A stretch of 25,170 bases of DNA from an uncultured Nitrososphaerota archaeon (GTDB lineage Archaea; Korarchaeota; Korarchaeia; Korarchaeales; Korarchaeaceae): the NCBI GenBank assembly GCA_964480775.1, contig CAYZRF010000024.1:1-25170 (forward strand), read 5' to 3'. The position numbers were made by a program, and so were the translations under genes. The notes under the pieces were generated by a model, which was given only the letters and a program-made list of their open reading frames with translations, searched no databases and was not told the DNA's origin. Below are positions 1-23,837 of the stretch, piece after piece; the first letter of the stretch is position 1; every line of letters begins with the position of its first letter.

Positions 1-47
1 AGGTTAATATTAAATACCTTGGACCCATCTTTAATGAGGTATTACCC

Positions 48-401
48 ATGGTAGAAGTCAAGCACAGGGATCTTGGCGAGACCCTCTTAATCAAAATTTT
101 CGGGTACTCACCGAAGTTAAGGATACTCGACATTTTCCTAGATAACCCGTACTTCGACTTCACGAAAAGCGAGTTGGTAAGAGAATTGGGGATGAGTAAG
201 CAAACCCTATACAAGAACTTCAGGGACTTAGAAGAGTTGGGTATAGTGGCTGTCTCAAGGAAGATAGGGAGAGCAACCCTTTACAGGTTGAACAGGGAAA
301 ACCCACTCGTTGAGTTGCTGGATCAGATAGTAACAGAAGCGTCGCTTCAAATAGCTAAGAAAGAAGCTAAAAAACAAGCTAGGGCCGTTCCGATTAAGTA
401 A
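48..401 (+). CDS. Winged-helix DNA-binding protein (ArsR/MarR-like small archaeal regulator, possible antitoxin)
   Basis: 117-aa ORF. The ATG is preceded by GAGGT 7 nt upstream. The segment FTKSELVRELGMSKQTLYKNFRDLEELGIVAVSRKIGRATLYRLN has an HTH-plus-wing pattern, and the tail is basic and K/A-rich. Confidence 0.6.
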   Translation: MVEVKHRDLGETLLIKIFGYSPKLRILDIFLDNPYFDFTKSELVRELGMSKQTLYKNFRDLEELGIVAVSRKIGRATLYRLNRENPLVELLDQIVTEASLQIAKKEAKKQARAVPIK

Positions 402-471
402 TCATTTTTCTTCTTTATGTTAAACCTTAGTTCATGAATCAGGTATCTCCCATCCCAGCTTTTTTCGATGA

Positions 472-651
472 AGATCTAAGGTCTTTCTTCATAAGATCGC
501 TTTTGCTCCAGTAAAATCTTATCCCAAGCAAAAGGGCAAGGCGGATGTCTTCATAACTAGGAACAAGAAGGACTACGAAGGCGTTAAGGATGAAATCGAA
601 GTACTAATGCCCGAGGAGTTCTTGGTTAAGTATAGTTCTAGCTTTCATTAA
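472..651 (+). pseudogene. C-terminal remnant of a PIN-domain (VapC/PIN_3-like) nuclease
   Basis: The frame is open from 472 to TAA 649-651 with no ATG/GTG/TTG start. The translation ...KGKADVFITRNKKDYEGVKDEIEVLMPEEFLVKY matches the typical C-terminal end of PIN toxins (xDxxITxDxDF/Y ... IxVxTPxEFL). Only about 60 aa remain. A separate 26-codon ATG ORF (434-514) lies in another frame. Confidence 0.3.
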
Positions 652-761: not shown

Positions 762-2021
762 TCATCTCAGGTAGCCCTCGAGACCATCTACCCTCTTCTT
801 ATCGGTCTTAGCTTCTCCAAAAAAGACTGGTTTGCCATAAACCCCATCATAGCCCGGCTCAATTTCAACCTTTCCCTCTCTAATCAAGAGGATAGAATTA
901 GCGATGCTATCTCCGACGACGGAAGAGATCTCGTCAAGGGGAACCTCCATCAAAATCTTAAGTTCATTACCAAAGCGATTTATCAACTCATTGTAGATCT
1001 TGAGCATTCTCTTGGAGTACTTCTCCCCAGATCCCAGGCTAAATGAGATTACCTCATACAGGGGCAACAGATCCTTGTAAGGCAAAGCTCCGGTGGGCAT
1101 ATAACCCTCAGGTCTATCTGCTAGCTCCTCAACTCTGTGTAAAACACCAATGGTTAACCTCTTCCCGCAAACAGGACATCTGTTCCCTAGCTTCATGGCC
1201 TCTTTAGGATGAAGACTGACCCCGCATTTAGAATGCCCGTCATAGTGATATTTCCCGTAAGCTGGATTTGTCTCCACAGTAAATAAGAATTCTGAGGGGG
1301 ATTTGCTCCTAATAGCCCCTATCAATGTCCTGTAGCTGGGTTCCTTCAAATCAAAAACGTTAAGCTCTCTACCAATCCTCCAACTCCAAGGAGAATGGGC
1401 ATCAGAAGAGCTTACAAGAGCATACCTGTCTAGACTGCTGAGCCTCCAATTCATTGAAGGATCTGATGACAATCCGGTCTCTAATGCATGAATGTGAATC
1501 GAAGCATCCTCAAATGCCTCTTCAACGCTATCAAAACCGCTATTTGAACCAAACAAAGAGAACCAGGGGGTCCAAATGTGGGCTGGAATGACCTCAAGGT
1601 CCTGACCAACTTCTAATACAGAATCCACTAATTCAGCTGGTGTCATACGTAGAGAAGGCCGTCCGTCCGATATCAGATCCCCTCTCCCTTCCAAAATTGC
1701 GTTTAAAGATTCTACAGCTTCAAAATCAGGAGCCAAGATGAGATGATGTATCCTGTGGATTCTTTCTCCTCTTTCGAACACCGTATTGACCTCTGCTGTT
1801 AAGATAAAGAAGGTTCCATTGTAGATATAGAAACCCTCAAACTCAGAGGGTCTGAGGAGGGCTTTAAGTTCTTTTAACCAGAGTGGATGGGTAAAATCTC
1901 CTGTTCCCAAAAGGTTTAATCCCTTTTTCTCAGCCCAGTAGGCTAGATTAGGAACGCTCATTTCCTTGCTTGTAGCCCTGCTATAGCGGGAATGTATGTG
2001 AAAATCAGCGTATATCCTCAT
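762..2021 (-). CDS. endoQ: Endonuclease Q-like PHP-domain nuclease with Zn ribbon
   Basis: 419 aa. N-terminal PHP signature YADFHIHSRYSRATSKEM...GLNLLGTGDFTHPLW, later PAHIWTPW, SSSDAHSPWSWRIGRELN, GKYHYDGH and the Zn ribbon CPVCGKRLTIGVLHRVEELADR. The C-terminal PGYDGVYG matches the remembered EndoQ architecture. The ATG overlaps the upstream stop (ATGA at 2018-2021). Confidence 0.65.
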   Translation of the reverse strand: MRIYADFHIHSRYSRATSKEMSVPNLAYWAEKKGLNLLGTGDFTHPLWLKELKALLRPSEFEGFYIYNGTFFILTAEVNTVFERGERIHRIHHLILAPDFEAVESLNAILEGRGDLISDGRPSLRMTPAELVDSVLEVGQDLEVIPAHIWTPWFSLFGSNSGFDSVEEAFEDASIHIHALETGLSSDPSMNWRLSSLDRYALVSSSDAHSPWSWRIGRELNVFDLKEPSYRTLIGAIRSKSPSEFLFTVETNPAYGKYHYDGHSKCGVSLHPKEAMKLGNRCPVCGKRLTIGVLHRVEELADRPEGYMPTGALPYKDLLPLYEVISFSLGSGEKYSKRMLKIYNELINRFGNELKILMEVPLDEISSVVGDSIANSILLIREGKVEIEPGYDGVYGKPVFFGEAKTDKKRVDGLEGYLR

Positions 2022-2845
2022 CTAACCTCGCCGTGATCATTAGTACTCGGTTGCTTTGGATTCTTTTCTCTAAGAGCCATTTCAACCGGTATTGAGGCCA
2101 ACCACTTGGATTCTAAGTATTGAGCTAAAGGATCAATAATTGACGCTTCCAGAACGACAACCATTAAGGGGGAATCTCTCTTTCTTCCAACCAAAGCAAC
2201 GCGTCTTTTATCGATTAGAATCCCCGAAGTTTTGGATTTTGAGATCCTCATCTCAAAATTCCTAAAGTTGGCAGATAGCTTAGATAACCAATCAGCAGAT
2301 GGGAGCACCATTCTTACATTAGAAATGCAAGTGTTTGGGAGAATGGACAGTACTTCAGCGAATAACCAACTATCAGCCTCCGAAAAAACAGCTAAAAGGT
2401 CACTTTCTGCAGCTTTTAGAAGATCTCTTAACAAGCCCAAGAACAAGCACTCCTCTCTAAGGACAAGGAGATCTTCCTTCATCCATTGAGATACTGAGAC
2501 AAGGTCAGAAATAAGACCCATACATTCAAACAGCTTTTTAAAACGTTCTTCTATCTCTAACGATTTTCTAACATAGAAATTCTTAATGGCTAGCTCAGGA
2601 GATATTGGAGAATAACGTATCGGCCTAGAACCCTCATATCTAACCAAGCCTAGCTCATGAAGTTGCTCAAACGTTTTATATATTCTCTCAACAGGAATTC
2701 CTGTTTCTATGCTTGTTTTCTTGGCGTTTGAGGCCCCCTCCTTCAAGAGAAATGCGTATACCTTCGCCTGCGTTTCCGTGAGGCCTATCTCTCTTAATGT
2801 TTCAATTAGCGCAAACGACTTTCCCTTATTATCCTTCAACCTCAA
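2018..2845 (-). CDS. TrmB-family transcriptional regulator
   Basis: 275 aa. The N-terminal TrmB-type wHTH is IGLTETQAKVYAFLLKEGASNAKKTSIETGIPVERIYKTFEQLHELGLVRYEGSRPIRYSP, followed by a coiled linker and a C-terminal effector-like domain. TTG start in a TTGA overlap with the glycerate kinase stop. Confidence 0.7.
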   Translation of the reverse strand: MRLKDNKGKSFALIETLREIGLTETQAKVYAFLLKEGASNAKKTSIETGIPVERIYKTFEQLHELGLVRYEGSRPIRYSPISPELAIKNFYVRKSLEIEERFKKLFECMGLISDLVSVSQWMKEDLLVLREECLFLGLLRDLLKAAESDLLAVFSEADSWLFAEVLSILPNTCISNVRMVLPSADWLSKLSANFRNFEMRISKSKTSGILIDKRRVALVGRKRDSPLMVVVLEASIIDPLAQYLESKWLASIPVEMALREKNPKQPSTNDHGEVR

Positions 2846-4215
2846 AGGATAACAGCCCCCAGCACATCCATCACGTTTGTGAGGGTCGGTCCCGTGAAAA
2901 TCAAGTCGTTTAGGGCGAGGAAGAAGGAGTAGGAATCATTTCTGTTGAGGAAAGTCGACGGTTTCAAGCCCAAACTTAGAGCTCTGTTAAGAGTTTTCCC
3001 ATCAGCAATTGCTCCAGCAGCATCTGTCACTCCATCAACCCCATCGGTTCCCACAGAAGCTATGCACAGTCCCTCTTCTTCAGCTATCTTTTCTACGGAT
3101 CCAAGAACTACTTCTTGGTTCCTTCCACCCTTACCAGAGCCCATAACTCTAACTGTCGTTTCGCCTCCAGCTAAAACTACTGCAGGCGGGCTTATAGGAA
3201 TGCTCTGATGCTTTATTCCTTGGGCGATACCTGCCAAAGCCTGTCCTACATGCCTAGCCTCTCCTTCAATAAAAGATCCTAAGACTAGCGTATTCAGACC
3301 AAAGGCCCGGGCACGATCAGAGGCAGCATTAAGAGCCTTTTCATTGTTTGCGATTATGAAGTTATGCACCCGTTCAAAGATGGGGTCTCCAGGCTTCGGC
3401 GTGTCTTGGATTTCACCCCTGATCCCCTTTTTGAGGGTGTCCACTATGCTTTCGGGCATCTTCTCCAAAATATCGTACTTCTCTAACACTTCCCACGCAT
3501 CTTGAAAGGTCGTAGTATCCGGAGCTGTGGGTCCAGAGGCTATGGCATCAAGAGGATCTCCTATAACGTCTGATATAATTAGAGAGATAACTGTTGCAGG
3601 ATAACAAAGTCTGGCCAGTCTTCCACCCTTTATCCGCGAGATATGCTTCCTAATTGAGTTTATCTCTTGGATCCTAGCTCCACATTCCAAAAGAACCTTA
3701 GTTGCTCTGTTGAGATCCTCTAGAGTTATTCCAGGCATGGGCATTTCCATTAGAGCGGAGCCACCACCGGAAATTAGGGTTATAACGACGTCAGACTCAT
3801 CCAGTCCTCTTACAAGCTCAACTATCTTACGCGTTCCCTCCAATGTATTGAGATCTGGAATTGGATGCCCAGCGGGAAAAGTCAAGACCTTGTTGAGGCT
3901 GAAGAGACTCTCCGTTCCTTTCAGCACATTCACGCAACCCGCATAGATTTTATCTGAAAGAGCGTATTCAAGCCCCTCAGCCATCTTACCGCTTGCCTTT
4001 CCAGCACCTATCACAAGTACTTTGCCCTTCAGGAGAATCTCCAGATCTTTAACGGAAAAACACTCATCCTTTAACGAAACAGAAGAAATTACGCTTTTTT
4101 TACCGTCAGCAGTCTCTATAGCTGACTCTAGGGTCCTAAGCATGATCTCTCTAGCTCTCTTATTCTTACCAATACCATTCGATATTATTTCCGAAGAGTT
4201 TTTGATGATACTCAA
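2842..4215 (-). CDS. gck: Glycerate 2-kinase (DUF4147/MOFRL family)
   Basis: 457 aa. Motifs typical of MOFRL glycerate kinases: VLVIGAGKASGKMA, LISGGGSALME, SIRKHISRIKGG, ISDVIGD, TAPD, VLAGGETTV, GKGGRNQE, GTDGVDG, FTGPTLTNVMD. TTG start (TTGA overlap with the clp1-like stop). An internal ATG at codon 25 is an alternative start. Confidence 0.85.
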   Translation of the reverse strand: MSIIKNSSEIISNGIGKNKRAREIMLRTLESAIETADGKKSVISSVSLKDECFSVKDLEILLKGKVLVIGAGKASGKMAEGLEYALSDKIYAGCVNVLKGTESLFSLNKVLTFPAGHPIPDLNTLEGTRKIVELVRGLDESDVVITLISGGGSALMEMPMPGITLEDLNRATKVLLECGARIQEINSIRKHISRIKGGRLARLCYPATVISLIISDVIGDPLDAIASGPTAPDTTTFQDAWEVLEKYDILEKMPESIVDTLKKGIRGEIQDTPKPGDPIFERVHNFIIANNEKALNAASDRARAFGLNTLVLGSFIEGEARHVGQALAGIAQGIKHQSIPISPPAVVLAGGETTVRVMGSGKGGRNQEVVLGSVEKIAEEEGLCIASVGTDGVDGVTDAAGAIADGKTLNRALSLGLKPSTFLNRNDSYSFFLALNDLIFTGPTLTNVMDVLGAVIL

Positions 4216-5480
4216 GGCTCTGTCAGACCCCTCCTTCCAATTTGTGTGCCATCTCTATTGAACTTTAGGTACCCAAAATCTATATACTCAAAGTCGCCCG
4301 AGAATTTAGTGAGGATTTCTAAAAATCCTTGATCTGGTCTGAAGCTCTTGATTATTCCAACCCCACTACAAAAACCGAGGCAATCTAAGAAACCAACATA
4401 CAAACCCTCATATCCCCTTATGGTAGCTACCCTTAGAGGCTTCCCCTTAATCATCAATCCCTTCTGCACTCCAAATGAATTCAAAAGACAAACTATTACA
4501 TCTGGAGCTTCTTCAGCGTATACTACTGGCCTTCTAAGCAATTTTTCGATCTCTCGACTGAGTTCAGGACTGGTTGAACCCGAAGAAAACAGCGTATCTA
4601 GGAGCTTGGTTTCACTTATGCCGATCCTCACACTTTTAGCTCCATTTAAGTATCTCTTTATGTTGTTTTGTCTGAAAAGAGCCCTGTATGAGCGGTCTTT
4701 TTTCCTTATACTCCTTGCAACAGGAATTTTAATGAGTTCGGAAGATTTTGGGATTAGTTTTTCTATGTGCCGTGCTTCATCTCCTCTTTGCAGAATTACA
4801 ACCTTGCTAGGTTCCGTTGCTAAGATTTTAAACCTCTTAAGAGCTCTTGCAGGACCAGAGTGAATATAACCAGTGGTGTTTATCAATATGACATCTGCTC
4901 CTTTATCTCTTGCCGCGTCTAGGAGCTTCTTAGTCCCTACTACCATGGGTAAGAGATGTCCTCTTGGAGTGTTGTCTCCGACAAAGAAGAGGAGGTTCGG
5001 ACAGGTTAGTGATGGATGAATGATCCTTTCTTCTATGAGCGATAAACCAATTGTTCCCACGGGGCCTATATCAGATTGCCCGATATCTGCGTCTATAAGC
5101 CCTACTTTTAGATCATTAGACACCAACTTATTTGCGAGGAACGAGAACAACCCGCTCTTACCTACATCTACGCCTCCAAGTAGCATTATTGTATCTCCTG
5201 ATACAATTTTTGTGGTTAATTCCTCCCATTCCCTTGGAACTATTTCAGGAGTCTCTATGGGCTTAGAAGCGGCCCATACCTCCAAATCACTAGTCTCTAA
5301 AGCCCTTATTAGAACAGGGATTCCCCTTCCCCTTACCTCTATGGAATCAGTTTCTGAGCCCCAACACTCAACTCTTCCTTTCCTCACAGTTAGCTTCAAA
5401 GGGCTTAGGAGCAAAAATCCGTAACGTGATTTTAGTGTGCATTCGAATTTGTGTAAGCCAATCGCGATGTCATGTGCCAT
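4212..5480 (-). CDS. Clp1/Grc3-family polynucleotide 5'-hydroxyl kinase
   Basis: 422 aa. Walker A MLLGGVDVGKSGL, then the Clp1-type DADIGQSDIGPVGTIGL motif and NTTGYI. N-terminal beta-rich and C-terminal domains are laid out as in archaeal Clp1. Confidence 0.65.
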   Translation of the reverse strand: MAHDIAIGLHKFECTLKSRYGFLLLSPLKLTVRKGRVECWGSETDSIEVRGRGIPVLIRALETSDLEVWAASKPIETPEIVPREWEELTTKIVSGDTIMLLGGVDVGKSGLFSFLANKLVSNDLKVGLIDADIGQSDIGPVGTIGLSLIEERIIHPSLTCPNLLFFVGDNTPRGHLLPMVVGTKKLLDAARDKGADVILINTTGYIHSGPARALKRFKILATEPSKVVILQRGDEARHIEKLIPKSSELIKIPVARSIRKKDRSYRALFRQNNIKRYLNGAKSVRIGISETKLLDTLFSSGSTSPELSREIEKLLRRPVVYAEEAPDVIVCLLNSFGVQKGLMIKGKPLRVATIRGYEGLYVGFLDCLGFCSGVGIIKSFRPDQGFLEILTKFSGDFEYIDFGYLKFNRDGTQIGRRGLTEP

Positions 5481-5611
5481 TCAGGGGATTTCTCAACCGA
5501 TATCTTAAATTATTACATATACCAGATCAAATCGAATGGGATGGAAGGAATCCATTTTTCCCTAACTTTTAATTGGTAATTGTGAAAGAAGGCTAAAGAG
5601 AGGTTTTTATC
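5481..5611. promoter_or_regulatory. Divergent promoter region between the clp1 operon and the RuBisCO-like gene
   Basis: 131-bp AT-rich spacer. It carries TATA-like elements (CTTAAATTATTACATATA about 5503-5521, TTTTAATTGG about 5569-5578) and GAGAGG 8 nt upstream of TTG 5612. Confidence 0.3.
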
Positions 5612-6826
5612 TTGGGGAAAGTTAAACGAGGATCCACAACATCTTCAGGGACTGAAAACTTGGAAGTAATTTATCGAATAAGAGGCGAGGTTTCTGTCAG
5701 TAAAATTGCTGATTTCATTTCATCAATGAAAGAAACAGCAGAAAGTAAGCAAATAGGGGGCTTAATATCGAAAATAAGGATATCTACCGTGGATGAAGAG
5801 AACTCCTTGCTAGGAATAGAATATCCCAACGACCTTTTTGACATAGAGTCCAACGGCATCCCTCAACTTATCTCAACCATCACAACGAATTTCTTTGAGG
5901 TAGTTAAGGTTGGTGAAATTGAATTAATGGACATACGGCTTCCTAAGGACTTTCTATCCTATTTTTCAGGCCCTAAGTTTGGGACTGAGGGAATTAAAAG
6001 GATGCTGGCATCCAAGGGTCCACTTCTTGGAGTTGTTATGAGGACAAGTCCCGATATCCTTCCAGCCACTCAAGCTAGGATATTTTACGATATTGCTATC
6101 TCTGGCATTGACGTCGGGGTTGATCCTCCGTACTTAACAAACCAGAATTTCAGCCCAATAGAGGCCAGAGCTTCGCATTTTGCGGATATGATCGATAGGG
6201 TGAGGGGGGAAACAGGTAGGAAGATAATGTACGCCATTAACATAACCTCGGGATGTGATAAGATACTGGAATTTGCTGAGAAAGCCGTTGAGAACGGTGC
6301 AACTGCATTAGAGGTAGATATTTCTAGTACTGGACTTTTTGTATTAGAAATGTTAGTTAAGGGAGGGCTTGAGGTCCCAATTTATGTAGTTGGTACATAC
6401 GAACCGTCCTTCATAGCTTCAAATGGATCTCTTTCAGGAAGAGCAATAGCCTTCATGGCAAGGCTATTGGGTGGAGATCTTGTCGCCAGAGGAGCTATTT
6501 CAAGAGGAAAATATGAGTTAGAGGAGTTAAAAGAAATTGATGGTGTCTTGAGGAGAAAGCTGGATAATATACTCCCAGCAATGCCAACAGCATATGGAGG
6601 GGTCTTTCCTGGGAGTTTAGAGGCAAACATACTTACGTTTGGTCAAGATCAGGTCCTGATGGCGGATGAAGCCATTTTCTTCCATCCTTGGGGAATTCAA
6701 GCGGGTGCTAGGGCTTTAAGGGAGGCCATGGATGCTATAATGCGAGGGGAGGGAGTTTTAATGGCAGCTCAAACTCATGACGAACTCAAACAAGCAATTG
6801 AGAAATGGGGATACGGCCCGGCTTAA
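5612..6826 (+). CDS. RuBisCO large-subunit-like protein, form III-derived, catalytic residues not conserved (non-carboxylating RLP)
   Basis: 404 aa. Collinear with archaeal form III RbcL (TNFF, GPKFGTEGIKRML, GETGRKIMYAINIT, YGG, HPWG, AGARALREAMDAIMRG...THDELKQAIEKWG). The KPK, KDDE, HxHRAMH and GGG motifs are replaced (see findings). TTG start with GAGAGG 8 nt upstream. The first in-frame ATG (codon 39) would delete aligned N-terminal sequence. Confidence 0.8.
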   Translation: MGKVKRGSTTSSGTENLEVIYRIRGEVSVSKIADFISSMKETAESKQIGGLISKIRISTVDEENSLLGIEYPNDLFDIESNGIPQLISTITTNFFEVVKVGEIELMDIRLPKDFLSYFSGPKFGTEGIKRMLASKGPLLGVVMRTSPDILPATQARIFYDIAISGIDVGVDPPYLTNQNFSPIEARASHFADMIDRVRGETGRKIMYAINITSGCDKILEFAEKAVENGATALEVDISSTGLFVLEMLVKGGLEVPIYVVGTYEPSFIASNGSLSGRAIAFMARLLGGDLVARGAISRGKYELEELKEIDGVLRRKLDNILPAMPTAYGGVFPGSLEANILTFGQDQVLMADEAIFFHPWGIQAGARALREAMDAIMRGEGVLMAAQTHDELKQAIEKWGYGPA

Positions 6827-6848: not shown

Positions 6849-7874
<1,026 letters not shown>

Positions 7875-7912: not shown

Positions 7913-9175
7913 TCAGAAAAAGTACCATCCTTCCATCTGTCTCCAGTCCCATTTGTAATCTTCTGCAAGATAATAGCCGTATACTATGGCCCCCCTCCAG
8001 ACGCTAAACTGAGGATCACTCACCATTTTTGGCTCTGATGTTATTCCAATCCTCTCTAAAAGCAGTTTTATCTTTGTAGGCGAGTCAACTGCTATGTTCT
8101 CAAGCTCAGAAGGAACTTTCCAATAAAAGGCCCCGCCCGACAGTATCACACTCCTTAGAAGCTGTGGCTGTATTTCAACTGGCGTCTTTGAGACAGAAAC
8201 ACGTATTGCCTCGCCTAAATCAACATCTCCTCTAATTACCTCGCCTGCAACCAACGTGTCTTTAGGAGGGGAAAAACCACGGGAGTAATAGCTCTCAAAG
8301 ATTTCATGCCTAGGATTAAAGTAAAACTCACCTATAAGAAACCTTAGCCAGCCCTTGTCTTCCATCTCTATCTTCACTGCGGTTTGAGGTATCTGGAAGC
8401 TTGAGACCAAAGCGCTTGGATTCTCCTTGGCCCAAGAGATTGCCTTGTCCAAATCCCTTGGCACGAGACCGGCTGCCTCTTTGAACAATCTGACAAATTT
8501 CTCCTCCTTGGCCAGATCTGAGTACCCCAGATCCTTGAGGATTTGAGCAGAAATTCTATCAGAATCAGATCCCCCTCTATTGAGTGGGATTAAGGCCCCA
8601 CTAATTACATCCTTACTTATCGGAGTGATTTGCGTGTTTCCATGGCCAGCCTCTAGTACTGTGCATACCGTAGCCTTTTCAGCAATTGCAACTGCCAGAG
8701 GCTGAGGTATGATAGTTAGAGCTTTGACTAAACGTCCTTCCTCCTTGTTTATCTCCTCATGAAGCTGAAAGAATTTTTCATACATGTAGGTTGGGGCTTG
8801 AGCTGCCAAGGCGGTGACAGCATAGAAACCATCAAAGCCACCTGATTTCTCTGGTATGTATCTAAGAAGAGAATATCTTAGAAGCTCTTTTGCTGCACGC
8901 CATCCTCGTTCATCTCTTCTCTCTATGACTCCATTTCTCATGGGATAAACAAGCCTGCTCAAGTCTGCCTTAGATTCAAGATATTCAACTACCTCTGGAC
9001 CAACCACTACCTCTTTGGCGACATACCCTCTTATCCTCTCTACCGCCTTCGATATCTTTGGAAAATACGCCCTATTTTCGATCATATCAGGAGTCTTCCC
9101 TATCCAAATGGGACCAAACTTGTAAAAAGCGGTCCCAAAATCTTCCCCAAAGACAGGGCGTCCTATTTCCTCCAA
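7913..9175 (-). CDS. cren-1: Crenactin (archaeal actin homolog)
   Basis: 420 aa. Actin-fold motifs FGEDFGTAFYKFGP (phosphate 1), VLEAGHGNTQITP (phosphate 2) and ILSGGAFYWKVP (adenosine), plus LNRGG, ILKDLGYSD, GLVPR, DPQFSVWRGAIVYGY. These track the Pyrobaculum crenactin sequence almost block for block. TTG start with GAGGGG 5 nt upstream. Confidence 0.85.
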   Translation of the reverse strand: MEEIGRPVFGEDFGTAFYKFGPIWIGKTPDMIENRAYFPKISKAVERIRGYVAKEVVVGPEVVEYLESKADLSRLVYPMRNGVIERRDERGWRAAKELLRYSLLRYIPEKSGGFDGFYAVTALAAQAPTYMYEKFFQLHEEINKEEGRLVKALTIIPQPLAVAIAEKATVCTVLEAGHGNTQITPISKDVISGALIPLNRGGSDSDRISAQILKDLGYSDLAKEEKFVRLFKEAAGLVPRDLDKAISWAKENPSALVSSFQIPQTAVKIEMEDKGWLRFLIGEFYFNPRHEIFESYYSRGFSPPKDTLVAGEVIRGDVDLGEAIRVSVSKTPVEIQPQLLRSVILSGGAFYWKVPSELENIAVDSPTKIKLLLERIGITSEPKMVSDPQFSVWRGAIVYGYYLAEDYKWDWRQMEGWYFF

Positions 9176-9186
9176 AACAACCCCTC

Positions 9187-9804
9187 CTATACTAAAACCC
9201 GAAGAGGAACGATCTTTAGCAGATCTTCATATTCTAGAACATCAGAGGGTGAGATCTTCCCAGTTTCTATATCTATATCTACACCCTCTCTTAAGAGGAG
9301 ATTGCCCTTTATTAGCTGACCGTATGAATAGCCACCTAATGTCAGGTCGCTTTTAATCACTCGATGGCAAGGGATTATCAATGGAAAGGGATTCGAGGCT
9401 ATATAGCCCCCTACCGCTCGAGGATGCATTTTAAGTAGGGTTCCAAGGGCTCGGTACGTAGTTACTTTACCCCTCGGGATATTTCTAATGGCTTTCAGGA
9501 GTAAGCCCTTTCTACCAGAAACAGGATACAGCCTTACAATATCACTTGTCATGGGGAATTTACCCTCAAAGAGATCAACTATAATGTGCGAGATTTCAAG
9601 ATCTCCTTGTTCTACATCGTAGTCAAGACGTAGAACGACTCTTCCTCTACTCTTCAAACAAGTTTCATGAAGATCAGCAAGTGCAAACCTCCTAGTTTTA
9701 AGCGGTATGGTATTACAAAGCAAGGACTCTCCGATATACGCGAGACCTACATGATAATTGTCGACTTCAACTATTGTTGCCCTAGCAATAACGTCTCCTT
9801 TCAA
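9187..9804 (-). CDS. ogt: Methylated-DNA--protein-cysteine methyltransferase (Ogt/MGMT)
   Basis: C-terminal domain IPRGKVTTYRALG...HPRAVGGYIASNPFPLIIPCHRVIKSDLTLGGY with the PCHRV active site. The maximal ORF runs to ATG 9882 but would overlap the rtcA start head-to-head. TTG at 9804-9802 has GAGGAAGG upstream and matches where MGMT N-domains begin. The start is uncertain. Confidence 0.8.
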   Translation of the reverse strand: MKGDVIARATIVEVDNYHVGLAYIGESLLCNTIPLKTRRFALADLHETCLKSRGRVVLRLDYDVEQGDLEISHIIVDLFEGKFPMTSDIVRLYPVSGRKGLLLKAIRNIPRGKVTTYRALGTLLKMHPRAVGGYIASNPFPLIIPCHRVIKSDLTLGGYSYGQLIKGNLLLREGVDIDIETGKISPSDVLEYEDLLKIVPLRVLV

Positions 9805-9835
9805 GGTACCTTCCTCAAGGGAAACTAAGAGATCA

Positions 9836-9843
9836 TATTTAAA
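9836..9843 (+). promoter_or_regulatory. TATA-box-like element upstream of rtcA
   Basis: TATTTAAA is centred about 32 nt upstream of ATG 9872. No SD precedes that ATG, which fits a leaderless or very short-leader transcript. Confidence 0.3.
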
Positions 9844-9871
9844 GTGAATTCTCAATAAACCTTGAACGACT

Positions 9872-10921
9872 ATGAAAGCCATCGTAATAGACGGAAGCTA
9901 CGGAGAAGGAGGAGGATCGATTTTCCGCTATGCTTTGGCCTTATCCTCTGTTACTTTAAAGCCTATCGAGATCATCAAGATAAGGGCAAAGAGAAGCAAC
10001 CCGGGGTTAAGGCCACAACACTTAACAGCTGCTAAGATATTGGCTGAAATGACTGAAGCAAAATTTGAGGGATTGAGGGTAGGATCCACCAGAGTACGTT
10101 TTGAACCAAAAAAGAGGAAAGGAGGAAAATTCACATTTGATGTGGGAACTGCTGGAAGCATATCGCTGATAATACAAGCTGTTCTTCCAGTTGCATTGTT
10201 TGCAGATAGAGAATCCACCGTGGAAATTAGAGGAGGTACGGACGTGAGGTTTGCACCACCAATAGACTACATGAAGAACGTATTTATCAGAAATCTATCT
10301 CTTATAGGTGTTGAGCAGATAGAGATAATTGTGAATAGAAGGGGACACTACCCAAGAGGCGGAGGCTTGGTCACCTTGAAGGTAACGCCTGTTGATAAAA
10401 TATCAACGCTTAACATTGAACTAAGAGGACACGTCTCAAGGATCCTCGGCATAGCACATGCTGTAAAACTTCCAAAGCATGTTGTAGAGCGCATTGCGTC
10501 ATCCGCAAAAGAAGTGCTACATCATTACGGATACAAAGAAGTTGAAATAACTGAGGAGTGGTCATCCAACGGTCATATGGGACCGGGAGCTGGAATAACA
10601 TTATTCGCTGAAGCTAAAACGATCTTAGGGGCAGATTCTCTGGGAGAAAGGGGAAAACGGAGCGAGAAGGTTGGCAAAGAAGCTGCAGAAAGGCTAATCC
10701 ATGAGTTGAAGACGAAAATGGCCTTTGACGCACATATGGGAGACATGGTGGTTCCGTATCTGGCCTTGGCTGGGGGTTCGTCCCTAATAGGGGTCAGTAA
10801 ATATACCCTTCACACAGAGTCTAATCTCTGGCTGACTAAGCAGATATTGAATGCTGGTTATGAAGTAATCAAAAATGAAGATGGCTCCGCTAAAATTTCT
10901 GTTAGAGGAGTTGGAATCTGA
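9872..10921 (+). CDS. rtcA: RNA 3'-terminal phosphate cyclase
   Basis: 349 aa. N-terminus IDGSYGEGGGSIFRYALALS, PGLRPQHL, GTAGSISLIIQAVLP, GGTDVRFAPPIDY, and the C-terminal FDAHMGDMVVPYLALAGG holding the nucleotidylated His. Confidence 0.9.
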   Translation: MKAIVIDGSYGEGGGSIFRYALALSSVTLKPIEIIKIRAKRSNPGLRPQHLTAAKILAEMTEAKFEGLRVGSTRVRFEPKKRKGGKFTFDVGTAGSISLIIQAVLPVALFADRESTVEIRGGTDVRFAPPIDYMKNVFIRNLSLIGVEQIEIIVNRRGHYPRGGGLVTLKVTPVDKISTLNIELRGHVSRILGIAHAVKLPKHVVERIASSAKEVLHHYGYKEVEITEEWSSNGHMGPGAGITLFAEAKTILGADSLGERGKRSEKVGKEAAERLIHELKTKMAFDAHMGDMVVPYLALAGGSSLIGVSKYTLHTESNLWLTKQILNAGYEVIKNEDGSAKISVRGVGI

Positions 10922-18965: not shown

Positions 18966-19283
18966 ATGTTTCGGATTGATACTTGGGTGTTTGCACTGAC
19001 AGAAGTATCGGAAGAGAAAGTTCCTATAGTTATTCCTGTCTCAAAACCATCAAAAGGAGCGGCAGGGAAGACAGGCTTATGGAGGGTATTCAAACCCATC
19101 ATAAACAAGGAAAAATGTACAAAATGCTTTATGTGCTGGCTTGTTTGCCCTGAGGAAGCCATTAAAGAGGGGAAGGATGGATTTCCAGAGATAGATTACA
19201 CTTACTGCAAGGGTTGTGGTGTTTGTTCAGATAATTGTCCTGTAGGAGCTATTTCAATGGTTGAAGAGGAGGAATCAGGATGA
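18966..19283 (+). CDS. porD: 2-oxoacid (pyruvate/2-ketoisovalerate):ferredoxin oxidoreductase, delta subunit
   Basis: 105 aa. KTGLWRVFKPIINKEKC, then two 4Fe-4S motifs: CTKCFMCWLVCP and CKGCGVCSDNCP. ATGA overlap with the next gene. Confidence 0.8.
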   Translation: MFRIDTWVFALTEVSEEKVPIVIPVSKPSKGAAGKTGLWRVFKPIINKEKCTKCFMCWLVCPEEAIKEGKDGFPEIDYTYCKGCGVCSDNCPVGAISMVEEEESG

Positions 19284-20500
19284 TTGCAAAAAGCAAAGAT
19301 GAGAGAAAAAAAGCTGGTGAATGGAAGATTCTTACAGGAAATCATGCTGTGTCATATGCAGCAAAACTGGCAAGAGTCCAGGTAGTTCCAGCATATCCTA
19401 TAACTCCTCAAACAACTATAGTGGAGCTTATTTCAGAGCTAATAGCTTCCGGGGAAATGAACGCTAGGATGATAAGAGTGGAAAGCGAGCACAGCGCAAT
19501 GGCAGCTGCCATAGGAGCTTCGGCTGTCGGTGCAAGAGTTTTTACCGCTACCGCGAGTCAAGGACTACTCCTAATGCATGAGATGCTCCACTGGGCTACT
19601 GGCTCAAGGACCCCTGTTGGAATGGCCGTAGTCAACAGGGCATTAGGACCCCCTTGGAACATACACGTTGACCACCAAGATGCGATCTCTCAGAGAGATA
19701 CAGGATGGATAATTTCTTTCGTCTCCTCTAATCAGGAGGCCCTAGATACAGTGATAACTCTCTATAAGGTTGCTGAGCATCCAGAGGTTCTCCTTCCCTT
19801 TATGGTCTGTCTCGATGGATTTGTGTTGAGCCACACCTATATGCCAGTTTACCTTCCTCCGCAAGATCAGGTCGATGAGTTCCTACCACCATATGATCCT
19901 CCGCATTGGAGGCTAGATCCGTCCAATCCAATCTCCTTCGGCCCTCTAGTACTTCCTAATCAGCCATACCAAGAAATGAGATGGTCTATACACAAATCCA
20001 TGGAAAAAGCATTGAATCTATTCGAAAAATATAGTAGGGAGTATGGAGAACTCTTTGACCTCAGACATGGAGGAGCTGTCAAAAGATACGAAACTGAAGA
20101 CGCTGATTACCTAATTATTACGGCTGGAACCCTGGCTTCAGAGGCAGAAGCTGCCGTGGATAAAATGAGAGATGACAGAATGAGAGTTGGACTCCTAAAA
20201 ATAAGGATGTACAGGCCGTTTCCATCGGAAGACATTAAGAAGGAGTTAGAGGGCAAAAGAGGCGCCATAGTTATAGATAGGAGCATTTCCTTCGGCTTTT
20301 CAGGACCCCTCTCAGAAGACGTTAGAGCCACTCTTCACTCCTTTGGTCTAGATGTTCCAGTCGTCTCTTACATAACTGGGCTAGGAGGCAGGGATGTAAC
20401 CTACTCTGACATTGAAAACATGGTTTCAAAGGGAGTTTCTTTGATCAACGAGGGGAAAACACCCCTGATCCTATGGCATAAAATGAGGGAGGGATTCTGA
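19280..20500 (+). CDS. porA: 2-oxoacid:ferredoxin oxidoreductase, alpha subunit
   Basis: 406 aa. LTGNHAVSYAAKLARVQVVPAYPITPQT, ESEHSAMAAAIGAS, GARVFTATASQGL, and a C-terminal domain III. POR versus VOR specificity cannot be decided from the sequence by eye. Confidence 0.85.
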   Translation: MIAKSKDERKKAGEWKILTGNHAVSYAAKLARVQVVPAYPITPQTTIVELISELIASGEMNARMIRVESEHSAMAAAIGASAVGARVFTATASQGLLLMHEMLHWATGSRTPVGMAVVNRALGPPWNIHVDHQDAISQRDTGWIISFVSSNQEALDTVITLYKVAEHPEVLLPFMVCLDGFVLSHTYMPVYLPPQDQVDEFLPPYDPPHWRLDPSNPISFGPLVLPNQPYQEMRWSIHKSMEKALNLFEKYSREYGELFDLRHGGAVKRYETEDADYLIITAGTLASEAEAAVDKMRDDRMRVGLLKIRMYRPFPSEDIKKELEGKRGAIVIDRSISFGFSGPLSEDVRATLHSFGLDVPVVSYITGLGGRDVTYSDIENMVSKGVSLINEGKTPLILWHKMREGF

Positions 20501-20502
20501 GG

Positions 20503-21396
20503 ATGGTGGTAAAGATAACTGACCTAAGGAGAGAGGGAGAATACCTTCTGCCTGGTTCAGCAGCTTGCCCGGGGTGTGGTCTAGCAATAGCTTTTAGAAT
20601 AGCGTCGAAGGTCCTTGGAAAAAACACCATATACTTCATACCAGCCTGCTGCACAAGCGTCATTCAAGCTCCTTATCCAAAAAGCGCCTTTAACGTTCCG
20701 GTATATAACGTTGCATTTATGGCCGCCGCCGCAGCCGCATCTGGTGCAGTTGAAGGATTGAGAGCATTGGGTAAAAAGGATATACAGGTAGTTGTGTGGG
20801 CTGGTGATGGAGGCACTGTTGACATAGGAATTCAAGCTCTCTCAGGAGCTTTTGAAAGGAATCACGATTTCATATACATATGTTATGATAATGAGGCTTA
20901 CATGAATACTGGCATTCAAAAATCTGGATCCACACCTTTTGGTGCATGGACAACAACCACACCCAAAGGAAGGATTGGAATGAAGAAGAACATGCCCTTT
21001 ATTGTGGCATCGCACGGTGCCCCCTACGTCGCAACTGCAAGTGTTGGTTATCCACTGGATCTAGCAAACAAGATTGAAAAAGCCAAGAGGATAAAGGGTC
21101 CAAAGTACATACATATACTCGCTCCATGCCCTCCGGGCTGGAGGTTTCCAATGGATAAGACTATAAAAGTAGGGAAACTAGCTGTAGATTCTTACATATG
21201 GCCTCTCTACGAGATAAAAAACGGAAAACTTCGAATAACCATGAAACCGAAGAGAGTTCCGATTGAAGAATACCTAAAGCTTCAGGGCAGGTTCAGGAAT
21301 ATTTCGACTGAAGAGATAGAAAAAATAAAGCAAATGGTAGAAGAACAGTGGGAAATATTGCAGAAGCTGGAGTCTATCGGAAAGATCTTTCTGTAA
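20503..21396 (+). CDS. porB: 2-oxoacid:ferredoxin oxidoreductase, beta (TPP/Fe-S) subunit
   Basis: 297 aa. PGSAACPGCG cluster-ligand cysteines, the GDGG..DIG TPP motif, YDNEAYMNTGIQKS, and ILAPCPPGW. Confidence 0.85.
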   Translation: MVVKITDLRREGEYLLPGSAACPGCGLAIAFRIASKVLGKNTIYFIPACCTSVIQAPYPKSAFNVPVYNVAFMAAAAAASGAVEGLRALGKKDIQVVVWAGDGGTVDIGIQALSGAFERNHDFIYICYDNEAYMNTGIQKSGSTPFGAWTTTTPKGRIGMKKNMPFIVASHGAPYVATASVGYPLDLANKIEKAKRIKGPKYIHILAPCPPGWRFPMDKTIKVGKLAVDSYIWPLYEIKNGKLRITMKPKRVPIEEYLKLQGRFRNISTEEIEKIKQMVEEQWEILQKLESIGKIFL

Positions 21397-21414: not shown

Positions 21415-23037
21415 TTAACCTATCTCTACACCCATTATGGAAGGCGGCCCGATATCCTCCTTTTTTCTCCTGAACTTTTTTGATAGAAGGTTTAGAGCAA
21501 AACCTGCAAAAACCGATAAGATTACGATCAGAAAAATCGGCTGGAACGTTAATAAGAACTCCGCATCATCAATGCACCTAGTAGCCTCGCTTACCCTGCC
21601 CTCTTTAAATAGATTCCTGGCTCTTTTTAGTTGAATCCCAGCCATCCAATTGAACGGGTTGTATCTAAAGCCTTTATTTATCCTAGCCTTTAACTCCAAT
21701 ATCCTAGTTTCGATTGAAGGTCTGATGTCAAATCCCCATTGTTTAAACATTGGACTTAGATCTTTACCAGCGGCTTGGCTTAAGTAAAGCACGAAAAGAT
21801 CCATAGTATCTATTTCAACGCCTTCTTCTGTAAAAGCCTCAAAGAACCTATCAAAAAGGCTTATCCCACCGTATTGCTCCCCTATTGTGTAGATCAGGTA
21901 TAGACTGGCAGCGTAGTATGGCCTAGGATCAGGAGGGGGGCCTCCACCACGCCAACCTACTAAAAAGCCAAAATCTTCAAGCTGTTCTCCTACTTGCTTG
22001 GCAGTCTCTATCTCATCCAAGCCAAGCTTAACTCCCTTCTCTTTGAGGAGTTCAATGGCTAAATAGTTCGCCAAGCCCTCATGAGCCCAACGTAGCTGGG
22101 TGGACAGCCCCGCCTGTCCCATATACTGATGAAATAGTTCGTGCAGAAGAGTTTCTTCTAACGTCCCCTCGGGCATCCTAATGACTATCATGTTAATGTA
22201 GACTCGTTGGGGCTCAAACCTTTCTTCAGCCTTTAATCTCTCTCTCAATCGGGTATAACCAAGGGTATATAGCTCCTCTACATCTTCTGGAACAAATAAC
22301 TCTAGAGTTATGTTTATTTCTGGTTGATTCGTGATGTCCATAATTCTTTGGATAAACATCTCATAAGCGGAAGTTATGTTTTCCGCCACATCGATGTACC
22401 TGCTCGGACACTTGATCTTAAGGCCACCCTCGGTTATTTCGACGAATTCGGCTGTTGGTACCTCGAATGAGATCAAAACCCTAACTAAGTGACCCTTATA
22501 ATCCTCAGAATCGAAGAAGAGCAGCCTTCTGTCGTCAATCACCTTTTCTTGACGGAAGCTATTTTCTTGTACCTCTTGTTCAGTTGAAAGGAAAATGTTC
22601 TCTATTTGATAGCTAGCGGACATGTTAACAATTATCTCGGTATGATACGCCGGAGAATAACAAATTGCCGTTGAGAAGAAGACCCCCTTAGGTTCTACTA
22701 TCAGAGCACCAAATCTATAACTCCAATTTATTTCTAAATAAGCGTTCGGGATGAAATCAAACGTAAAATTGTAGTAGAAGTAGTAAGTGGAATTCTGTAT
22801 AGATGTGTTGGAAATTCCGATTAGCTTGCTGTCGTAATCGTGGAATTTAGGCACAAGCAGCCACGCATGACCCGCTTCCTCCGAAGTGAAGTTGACGTAG
22901 ATGTCTATCCATCCATCTTCACGCACGGTAAAGAGATAAGTAAATCCACTTTTCTCCTGCTCCTTTGCTCTAATTGTCATAGTATTTGCTGTAACAATAA
23001 GCAAAATCAGGGCTAAAGTGATCAAAATCCTCCTCAT
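21415..23037 (-). CDS. Membrane-anchored extracellular gluzincin metallopeptidase (Peptidase_MA/M1-like catalytic domain)
   Basis: 540 aa. N-terminal signal/anchor MRRILITLALILLIVTANT. The HELFH zinc motif is followed 16 residues later by WAHEGLANY (third ligand Glu). C-terminal TM helix FQPIFLIVILSVFAGFALNLL plus a basic tail. There are at least 8 N-x-S/T sequons in the N-terminal half. Confidence 0.6.
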   Translation of the reverse strand: MRRILITLALILLIVTANTMTIRAKEQEKSGFTYLFTVREDGWIDIYVNFTSEEAGHAWLLVPKFHDYDSKLIGISNTSIQNSTYYFYYNFTFDFIPNAYLEINWSYRFGALIVEPKGVFFSTAICYSPAYHTEIIVNMSASYQIENIFLSTEQEVQENSFRQEKVIDDRRLLFFDSEDYKGHLVRVLISFEVPTAEFVEITEGGLKIKCPSRYIDVAENITSAYEMFIQRIMDITNQPEINITLELFVPEDVEELYTLGYTRLRERLKAEERFEPQRVYINMIVIRMPEGTLEETLLHELFHQYMGQAGLSTQLRWAHEGLANYLAIELLKEKGVKLGLDEIETAKQVGEQLEDFGFLVGWRGGGPPPDPRPYYAASLYLIYTIGEQYGGISLFDRFFEAFTEEGVEIDTMDLFVLYLSQAAGKDLSPMFKQWGFDIRPSIETRILELKARINKGFRYNPFNWMAGIQLKRARNLFKEGRVSEATRCIDDAEFLLTFQPIFLIVILSVFAGFALNLLSKKFRRKKEDIGPPSIMGVEIG

Positions 23038-23050
23038 ATATCGCTCTTGC

Positions 23051-23383
23051 TTAGATGGGATATTCGTTATTAAACTCTTTGGCTGGCGGAGATATTAGAT
23101 AAGCGTTGGCCATCTGTTCTCTCTGTAGCATCTCCCATATTGCTCTAGCGTATATCTCTGTCTTATCTTCTTCTGTGAGAATGGCCTTTCCAGCCATTAT
23201 CTGCTCCTTAAGGTACTTTGCGGGATCCTCTCCCCTTGCTCTTATTATCTCCCTCAATATGTCCTCAAGAGTTGCTTTAGGTTTGGGAAATATCCTTAGG
23301 TTTGCCGCTGCATAGATGGAGCGCAGGAACCCGATCCCTTTCATCCGAGCGTCGTGGTAAGTGCTCAGCTTATAATCCATCAT
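23051..23383 (-). CDS. Hypothetical protein (110 aa), start uncertain
   Basis: ORF with a tandem ATG ATG and no clear SD. The reading frame stays open 40 codons further upstream (to 23503) with no alternative start codon. I recognised no family. Confidence 0.35.
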   Translation of the reverse strand: MMDYKLSTYHDARMKGIGFLRSIYAAANLRIFPKPKATLEDILREIIRARGEDPAKYLKEQIMAGKAILTEEDKTEIYARAIWEMLQREQMANAYLISPPAKEFNNEYPI

Positions 23384-23711: not shown

Positions 23712-23837
23712 AAGAAAAAGTATAGATTTAGAATTTAAATGTTAAAATCAGACTAATCTAGGATTGAAATGAGTCCAAGATGTTCTGGAAATCTATTTGA
23801 TAGAGAGATGCCATAGTAATTTAGGAGAGTGTACCAA

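Follow-up and report, generated by a model that had tools for sequence, protein, structure and literature searches.

A degenerate RuBisCO large-subunit homolog of Korarchaeia: intact fold, replaced catalytic centre and a constant ribose-1,5-bisphosphate isomerase neighbour

INTRODUCTION

What is left for a RuBisCO large subunit to do once nearly every residue of its catalytic centre has been exchanged, and on what is selection then acting? The question is posed by a gene at positions 5612..6826 (+) of a 25,170-nt stretch of DNA from an uncultured archaeon (contig CAYZRF010000024.1 of assembly GCA_964480775.1), assigned by its GTDB lineage to the Korarchaeaceae; this whole stretch is called the window below. 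A sequence-only reading of the window had taken the 404-aa product for a RuBisCO homolog of form III ancestry with its catalytic core replaced. The fold proves to be intact and the canonical site lost, in a protein that is under purifying selection, that belongs to a clade of Korarchaeia plus one further lineage, and whose gene is paired with e2b2, the gene for ribose-1,5-bisphosphate (R15P) isomerase. What the protein does is weighed after the evidence has been given.

A COMPLETE FOLD WITHOUT THE RUBISCO ACTIVE SITE

The open reading frame (ORF) begins with TTG, has zero internal stops and constitutes a monocistronic gene. Between it and a Clp1-like gene is a divergent intergenic region of 131 nt (5481..5611), in which the sequence offers a GAGAGG Shine-Dalgarno-like box at 5598-5603, 8 nt before the start codon, and an AT-rich box at ~5566-5576; a promoter probably resides there. 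The product comprises an N-domain (~residues 14-117), a TIM barrel (~132-360) and C-terminal helices (362-399). Pfam RuBisCO_large_N (PF02788) matches it with E 8.9e-8 and 32.8 bits (gathering score 20.7), and RuBisCO_large (PF00016) matches residues 132-399 with E 1.1e-27 and 97.5 bits (gathering score 30.1). Both domains thus lie above their gathering scores and, with the fold, make the protein a member of the RuBisCO large-chain superfamily. An AlphaFold2 model, suggested in the earlier reading and computed from an 11-sequence alignment, is a confident RuBisCO fold (mean pLDDT 84.3, pTM 0.85) with an eight-stranded barrel and an N-domain sheet, confidence being low only for residues 1-13, the former N-loop (pLDDT 61) and the loop after strand beta5. 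Foldseek comparison of this model with the PDB returned as top entries solely structures of RuBisCO or RuBisCO-like proteins (RLPs), at TM 0.82-0.86, the C. tepidum RLP 1TEL first and P. horikoshii 2CWX/2D69 and T. kodakarensis 3A12 also leading.

Within this fold the catalytic centre has been rewritten. Canonical residues are given spinach numbers, as in the sequence-only reading, and the register was taken from HMMER alignments to the T. kodakarensis, P. horikoshii and 8DHT form III chains together with MAFFT alignments of ~150 homologs. The replacements claimed at K175, K177, K201, D203/E204, S379 and G403/G404 are reproduced by both programs, and the codon coordinates of the replaced residues, checked against the DNA, agree with those first given. 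At the end of strand beta1, R144-T145-S146 (6041..6049, this and the following segments all on the + strand) stands for K175-P176-K177; position 175 is Arg in 7 of 9 divergent members of the clade delimited below and Lys in the member P0011. V170-D171-P172-P173 (6119..6130) stands for K201-D202-D203-E204, and to judge from these residues the carbamate/Mg2+ site is abolished. Across the clade, position 201 is V/A/M/L/R/I, position 203 P/T/I/G and position 204 P/Q/E.

Further along the barrel, Y258..E264 (6383..6403; strand beta5 plus loop 5) corresponds to H292-x-H294-R295-x-x-H298. Y258 is a conserved residue specific to the clade, and the remainder of this segment is the fastest-evolving and indel-rich part of the protein. 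The assignment of V260 and G261 to H294 and R295 had been made by eye; MAFFT returns it and HMMER instead opens a 2-residue gap, so that the exact register is ambiguous, although neither alignment offers a His or an Arg. H298 is E264 in MAFFT. At A292-R293 (6485..6490) H327 has become Ala and is followed by a clade-conserved Arg. The segment from Y328-G329-G330, the counterpart of S379-G380-G381, through E337 and N339 at the start of helix alpha7 (6593..6628) combines a triplet that varies among orthologs with a clade-invariant E337 and a near-invariant N339. K300 aligns with K334, and G329/G330 with G380/G381, but none of these is conserved among orthologs. In the P1-phosphate loop D352-E353 (6665..6670) replaces G403-G404, an acidic residue being found at this pair throughout the clade, and after the first C-terminal helix comes the clade-invariant motif R378-G379-E380 (6743..6751).

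In the N-domain the ESSxGTW loop (E60/T65/W66) is gone, as had been noticed: no GTW motif is found and the loop region is shortened. N93 matches the N123 position in close orthologs only. Relative to form III the domain is reduced by ~18-20 aa (GPKFG lies at residue 120 vs 138-140), a smaller difference than the 25-40 aa estimated by eye. Three stretches said to be kept, GPKFGTEGIKRML, GETGRK..YAINIT and HPWG, are indeed present, and identity to form III is 42-46% in the C-terminal 74 aa and 34-37% in the barrel.

Could this pattern be an accident of alignment or of drift? Since the same substitutions recur in all orthologs, at 33-82% identity, it is not due to chance, and the misalignment that the earlier reading had named as its own possible undoing is contradicted both by these shared substitutions and by the independent alignments. 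Clade-specific polar residues at or near the barrel strand ends are R144, D171, Y258, R293, E337, N339 and D352/E353, with H358, near the barrel mouth, conserved superfamily-wide. A further clade-specific set lies on the surface of helix alpha2 (S188, H189, D192, M193, D195, R196), to which the C-terminal R378-G379-E380 is to be added.

PURIFYING SELECTION

The ratio of nonsynonymous to synonymous substitution (dN/dS) was estimated by the Nei-Gojobori method for genes of the window against three orthologous loci. For the homolog it is 0.086, 0.094 and 0.072; among the neighbours it is 0.03 for R15P isomerase and crenactin, 0.10-0.12 for the Clp1-like kinase and 0.14-0.18 for TrmB. Constraint is far from even along the protein. 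Two segments are near-frozen, residues 153-202 (alpha2; proportion of nonsynonymous differences, pN, 0.026-0.064) and 353-403 (the C-terminal helices; pN 0.017-0.042), and the fastest is residues 253-302 (pN 0.23-0.30), ancestral home of H294, R295, H298, H327 and K334. Because synonymous sites are saturated throughout, the invariant C-terminus included, conservation is at the protein level. Recent gene conversion, considered as a cause of the near-invariant C-terminus, is ruled out by the same saturation (proportion of synonymous differences, pS, 0.73-0.83 there).

A CLADE OF ITS OWN

How far does such a protein extend? In a word-indexed search of 5.8 billion proteins, close orthologs numbered just six (70-82% identity), with a single further one at 40%. 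When 1.84 billion representatives were scanned exhaustively with HMMER, P0011 (43%) and P0013, P0017, P0019 and P0034 (33-39%) joined them, ordinary form III coming next at ~33%. Every clade member found has the degenerate signature: K201 is changed to a hydrophobic residue or Arg and H292 to Tyr, Phe or Leu, an Arg follows the H327 position, the G403/G404 pair is acidic, and E337 and a DA..RGE motif are present. The window protein itself has V170, Y258, R293, D352/E353, E337, R378-G379-E380 and the convergent e2b2 gene by which membership is recognized. When 20 bona fide RuBisCOs and 38 RLPs were included in a bootstrapped neighbour-joining (NJ) tree, 100/100 replicates recovered the clade as monophyletic.

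Members come from Korarchaeia and from one metagenome-assembled genome (MAG) lineage labelled Bathyarchaeota. Their labels are Ca. Korarchaeota, Ca. Methanodesulfokora and 'Thermoproteota archaeon', that of the P0034 lineage being Ca. Bathyarchaeota, and the databases name them 'hypothetical protein' or 'RuBisCO large subunit C-terminal-like domain-containing protein'. Two loci, L007 and L009, are from MAGs B15_G15 and B8_G17, classified as Thermoproteota; Korarchaeia; Korarchaeales; f_QMVU01 (PMC10667645 Table S1); the GC content of B15_G15, 43.6%, is similar to that of the window. Literature searches on this clade or on K201-less RLPs found nothing specific.

Curated family models agree with the tree. 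The homolog's best NCBIfam model is TIGR03326 (type III RuBisCO), at 187.6 bits vs a cut-off of 497.45, the best E-value for this model among all 13 clade members being 2.8e-84. The MtnW models TIGR03332 and NF007095 give 116.9 bits vs 513.6 and 144.7 bits vs 409, the OiaX model NF042437 gives 101.2 bits vs 700, and the form II RuBisCO model is likewise far under its cut-off. As no NCBIfam equivalog cut-off is reached, the homolog falls outside every curated characterised RLP family, and the suggestion that it might represent a new RLP clade fits. The further statement that most RLPs keep K201, D203 and E204 agrees with a survey of homologs.

Loss of the carbamylated lysine is met elsewhere. 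The unrelated metagenomic RuBisCO homologs P0031/P0032, P0101, P0124, P0128, P0135 and P0156 are also without K201, with or without D203/E204, and in the NJ tree some of them adjoin bona fide form III. On these sequences the carbamate site appears to have been eroded repeatedly and independently among RuBisCO homologs, and its loss is not unique to this clade.

ORIGIN FROM FORM III?

Form III ancestry, asserted in the sequence-only reading, is favoured, not proven. Against the PDB, phmmer puts form III first (8DHT, P. horikoshii 2CWX, T. kodakarensis 1GEH/3A13; E ~1e-39) and form IV RLPs second (E = 1e-33 to 1e-26), and the clade profile does so narrowly (2CWX 201 bits vs 184 for Geobacillus MtnW 2OEK). 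Outside the clade the best phmmer matches are Thermoproteota proteins with the full catalytic set, from a Nitrososphaeria MAG (L010), Methanosuratincola (L011) and P0014. Scores to L010 are 240 bits for the window protein and 354 bits for P0011, compared with 191 and 266 bits for the best RLP.

P0011 is the least-decayed member. It retains IKPKVG, EESAGTW, R295, G380/G381 and H383, and already has V201, G203, Y292, Arg after 327 and E-D at 403/404. Its host is nearer to that of the window, judged by host neighbours (e2b2 and actin 74%), than are the hosts of P0007, P0017 and P0019 (~65%), while the window lineage and the P0007/P0017/P0019 lineages are both without K175, K177 and the N-loop. 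Since P0011 is thus nearer to the window than those more decayed lineages are, the simplest interpretation is that catalytic residues decayed in parallel.

The best outside hits, the KPK and EESAGTW of P0011, the profile ranking and the linkage to e2b2 are the grounds for favouring form III descent. It is not demonstrated because the NJ tree leaves the attachment of this long-branched clade open: the clade and bona fide RuBisCOs group in 13/100 replicates, and bona fide RuBisCOs alone are monophyletic in 81/100.

A CONSTANT R15P ISOMERASE NEIGHBOUR

Convergent with the homolog is e2b2 (6849..7871, -), its stop codon 22 nt from that of the homolog on the opposite strand. The enzyme that it encodes is a bona fide R15P isomerase. 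It scores 424.5 bits with TIGR00511 (cut-off 314) and 215 bits with the MtnA model TIGR00512 (cut-off 279), its best solved structure is T. kodakarensis R15P isomerase 3A11 (E = 1.3e-118, near full length), and the segments with the catalytic Cys (MTHCHS) and the catalytic Asp (GAD) are kept.

The tail-to-tail pair is found in 15/15 distinct clade loci that have downstream flank (L001, L003, L004, L005, L007, L009, L017-L019, L046-L050 and L054, same-contig duplicates counted once), with stop-to-stop distances of -6 to +29 nt. In the P0034 lineage (L049/L050) the pair is kept, with an isomerase of 420 bits to TIGR00511, and every other flanking gene is different. By comparison e2b2 is nearby in only 1/10 sampled bona fide or near-bona-fide form III loci, namely L011. 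A metagenome scan for new contexts turned up nothing beyond further syntenic loci of the Korarchaeia type (L053, L054) and RuBisCO/RLP loci that are unrelated.

The P0034-lineage pair at L049:1581-9924 sits beside a Bmp-type ABC transporter, pyrB, pyrC and a divergent metallophosphoesterase, with CdvA also flanking. With its nucleoside/nucleotide flavour, this neighbourhood may give a hint of which pathway the pair serves.

A REBUILT POCKET, OR NONE?

What, then, does the protein do? Our preferred answer, held with about even confidence, is that it has been neofunctionalised, that its rebuilt pocket is in use and that it is still tied to R15P isomerase and the pentose-bisphosphate module. On established mechanistic grounds, canonical chemistry on ribulose-1,5-bisphosphate (RuBP) is excluded because there is no carbamylatable Lys and no Mg2+ ligand, because Asp/Glu occupy the P1-phosphate loop, and because R295, H298 and H327 of the P2 site have been lost together with the partner-subunit loop. 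The characterised RLPs with enolase or isomerase activity rely on the K201/D203/E204 metal centre, and with that centre lost their chemistry is excluded also, as the earlier reading had argued for both. The invariant tail-to-tail pairing with a genuine R15P isomerase is the reason for thinking that the protein works with the pentose-bisphosphate (nucleoside/AMP-ribose) module.

A course of events can be envisaged. Its starting point would have been an archaeal RuBisCO large subunit, probably of form III, in which the founding changes would have been K201 to a hydrophobic residue, loss of D203, H292 to Tyr, an Arg after the H327 position and G403/G404 to Asp/Glu, together removing the carbamylated-lysine/Mg2+ site and placing acidic side chains in the P1-phosphate loop. 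K175, K177, the E60/T65/W66 loop, R295 and S379 would then have decayed in parallel, lineage by lineage. The present protein has a complete fold, a new clade-conserved polar set around the barrel mouth (R144, D171, Y258, R293, E337, N339, D352/E353 and H358) and strong constraint on the outer helix alpha2 and the C-terminal RGE region; its rebuilt pocket would most likely bind a different ligand, as a new enzyme or a sensor.

Several observations tell against this account. The canonical-site positions vary within the clade (position 201 as listed above; indels in loop 5), and the most constrained segments, being outer helices, fit a non-catalytic scaffold equally well. The gathering of the conserved polar residues into a single pocket is itself deduced from homology to RuBisCO strand ends. 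The NJ tree fails to nest the clade inside form III. As for the pairing, most instances are phylogenetically non-independent because the whole Korarchaeia block is syntenic (Clp1, crenactin, OGT, RtcA, RPA, AspRS), the single independent context is the L049/L050 lineage, and the convergent genes are not co-transcribed.

A more specific and rather speculative proposal, to which we give a clearly smaller chance, is that the homolog is the RuBP-handling part of a third archaeal variant of pentose-bisphosphate metabolism, through a new non-carboxylating conversion or as a regulatory or sensor subunit of the isomerase. Halophilic archaea have a pentose bisphosphate pathway that does not carboxylate, with R15P isomerase and without RuBisCO carboxylase (Sato et al. 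2022, PMC9700705), a precedent for an R15P isomerase feeding RuBP consumers other than RuBisCO, and this makes a carboxylase-free module biologically plausible. In the halophiles, however, RuBP is consumed by a HAD phosphatase and a FucA-type aldolase instead of a RuBisCO homolog, and no genes for such enzymes were seen next to the present locus. Were the proposal right, a RuBisCO would have been recruited from a carboxylase ancestor out of carbon fixation in Korarchaeia.

The main rival of a rebuilt and working pocket is a pure pseudoenzyme, with no catalysis and no ligand, that acts structurally or by binding protein, for instance by forming a homo-oligomeric scaffold or by acting as a regulatory partner to R15P isomerase or to some other protein, the old site perhaps being plugged by salt bridges of R144 and R293 with D171, D352 and E353. 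We regard this as doubtful, and as the strongest of the alternatives. The slowest segments are just those that a scaffold would need, alpha2 and the C-terminal helices with their clade-specific surface residues; the former catalytic loops (aa 253-302) evolve fastest, the former catalytic positions vary among members, and the paired Arg and Asp/Glu replacements suit a site that fills itself. Yet conservation of E337, the acidic residue at 353, R144, Y258, R293 and N339 at ~35% identity exceeds what a plug needs, several of the conserved outer-helix residues are also kept by catalytic RuBisCOs for reasons of fold, and no partner protein has been identified.

Next comes the thought that the genome encodes, at another place, a bona fide form III RbcL which the homolog modulates or assembles as an accessory or hetero-oligomeric partner, the route AMP phosphorylase → R15P isomerase → RuBisCO being intact. 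Its attraction is that e2b2 is strongly conserved, in rate (dN/dS 0.03) and in its catalytic segments, so that RuBP is presumably produced and something must consume it; moreover, rbcL (form III-b), deoA and e2b2 have been reported in several Korarchaeia clades (PMC12787533; PMC10667645), and the C-terminal region of the homolog is form III-like at 42-46% identity. Nevertheless, no bona fide rbcL is present in the window or the relative loci (16-25 kb each), and no gene for AMP phosphorylase either. The published rbcL calls are based on KEGG Orthology (KO), and some of them may refer to the present homolog; among the 120 closest relatives of L010, the nearest bona fide form III, not one is labelled Korarchaeota, which is a weak negative; and a heterodimer would have two dead active sites, both barrel and N-loop residues being missing. 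The idea is improbable.

A second RuBisCO-family gene does occur at one relative locus, L001 (GCA_964618805.1), at 1-474 (-), ~10 kb upstream of the degenerate gene and with no counterpart in the window. Could it be the missing RbcL? It is not: with IKPC, GGADFVKDDE and H294 kept and R295 lost it is a form IV-type RLP, so that L001 adds no carboxylase. Its neighbours, genes for an FGGY sugar kinase and a saccharopine-dehydrogenase-like protein, suggest a separate pathway for sugar acids or pentuloses.

A methionine-salvage pair, with the neighbour as MtnA and the homolog as the 2,3-diketo-5-methylthiopentyl-1-phosphate (DK-MTP-1-P) enolase or 5-methylthioribulose-1-phosphate (MTRu-1-P) isomerase known from Bacillus and Rhodospirillum, is very unlikely. 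It is true that MtnA is of the same eIF-2B-related superfamily as the e2b2 product and that the MtnW type is second-best among NCBIfam models (145 bits) and in the PDB profile comparison (2OEK, 184 bits). This reading is countered by the class of the neighbour, which passes the R15P isomerase equivalog, fails that of MtnA and has the T. kodakarensis R15P isomerase as by far its best structure; by the missing metal site, K201, D203 and E204 being kept in all PDB RLPs and most RLP representatives; and by the MtnW cut-offs, every one of which is missed by a factor >2.5. Nor does an mtn gene occur anywhere else in the window. Least credible of all, despite the loss of nearly all catalytic residues and a rate faster than that of its neighbours (72% identity to L001 vs 90-92% for e2b2 and actin), is a decaying pseudogene or an artefact of register, the former, which the sequence-only reading had itself envisaged, being ruled out by dN/dS of 0.07-0.09 with saturated dS and by intact orthologous ORFs in at least 12 lineages, and both being opposed by the confident fold prediction, a register confirmed by three independent methods and a rate similar to that of the neighbouring Clp1 and OGT genes.

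OTHER FEATURES OF THE WINDOW

Upstream of the homolog and divergent from it (762-5480, -) are genes for a Clp1-like P-loop kinase, a MOFRL glycerate 2-kinase and a TrmB regulator, with a TIGR00375-like ORF. Joined by 4-nt overlaps (4212-4215, 2842-2845, 2018-2021) in an arrangement conserved across Korarchaeia loci, they form an apparent operon, in which an RNA-kinase-type protein alongside a glycerate kinase makes an odd combination. On the other side of e2b2 is a crenactin-type actin homolog (7913-9175, -) with 92-95% identity among relatives and dN/dS of ~0.03, which was of use in assigning the window to Korarchaeia. The ORFs for an O6-methylguanine methyltransferase (9187-9882, -) and an RNA 3'-phosphate cyclase (9872-10921, +) overlap by 11 nt at their 5' ends, so that at least one mechanically chosen start codon is probably too far upstream. 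Between pyruvate:ferredoxin oxidoreductase genes (18966-21396) and a gene for an HdrD-like CCG-domain protein (23829-24968) are two ORFs, 21415-23037 (-, 540 aa) and 23051-23383 (-, 110 aa), without a Pfam hit, the 540-aa one having no NCBIfam hit either.

IMPLICATIONS

That a RuBisCO, probably a true form III carboxylase, should have lost its whole catalytic apparatus, including the centre that characterised RLPs retain, under strong purifying selection makes this a natural case of repurposing of the RuBisCO fold in the direction from carboxylase to RLP. The novelty lies in the combination of a Korarchaeia-wide clade, near-complete catalytic erasure, probable carboxylase ancestry, purifying selection and obligate R15P isomerase pairing. 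The last of these provides a testable handle on the fate of RuBP in archaea without a working carboxylase.

There is also a consequence for annotation. Metabolic reconstructions of Korarchaeia include a route through DeoA, R15P isomerase (e2b2) and 'Rubisco III' to 3-phosphoglycerate that derives from KO or hidden Markov model calls (PMC10667645, PMC12787533). If the published RuBisCO calls rest on this gene, the final step to 3-phosphoglycerate is unsupported and the fate of RuBP open, and automated KO or Pfam 'rbcL' annotation in TACK archaea would need a check of catalytic residues.

COMPARISON WITH KNOWN RUBISCO AND RLP TYPES

With form III RbcL (T. kodakarensis 1GEH/3A12, P. horikoshii 2CWX, Thermoproteota L010/L011), the source of its best sequence and profile matches, the homolog has in common the two-domain fold (TM 0.84-0.85), the motifs GPxFG, LTNQxF...R, DRVRxETGRK, RLxGGD, HPxG and the C-terminal ...ELKQAIEKWGY, and, at L011 (e2b2→rbcL), the genomic link to R15P isomerase. 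Unlike form III, it is without the K201, D203 and E204 of the metal site, without K175, K177, H294, R295, H298, H327, S379, G403 and G404 and without the E60/T65/W66 loop, and its equivalents of K334 and G381 are unconserved. It can form neither the carbamate-Mg2+ centre nor the two phosphate sites, and is therefore predicted to be no carboxylase.

The form IV RLPs (1TEL/1YKW; MtnW/YkrW 2OEK, 2ZVI, 4NAS; R. palustris RLP2 2QYG; OiaX) resemble the homolog in being RuBisCO folds that do not fix CO2 and in having substitutions at RuBP-specific residues. Those that have been characterised, and most RLP representatives surveyed, keep K175, K201, D203 and E204, whereas the clade of the homolog loses all of them; the K201-D203-E204 metal site that goes with K175 in the MtnW/YkrW type is thus also lacking. 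The clade is separate, fully supported and outside the large RLP cluster, and its partner gene encodes R15P isomerase where form IV RLPs are paired with methionine-salvage or sugar-acid catabolic genes. Judged by its residues, the homolog works like neither form III RuBisCO nor any characterised RLP, and its membership extends no further than the RuBisCO large-chain superfamily.

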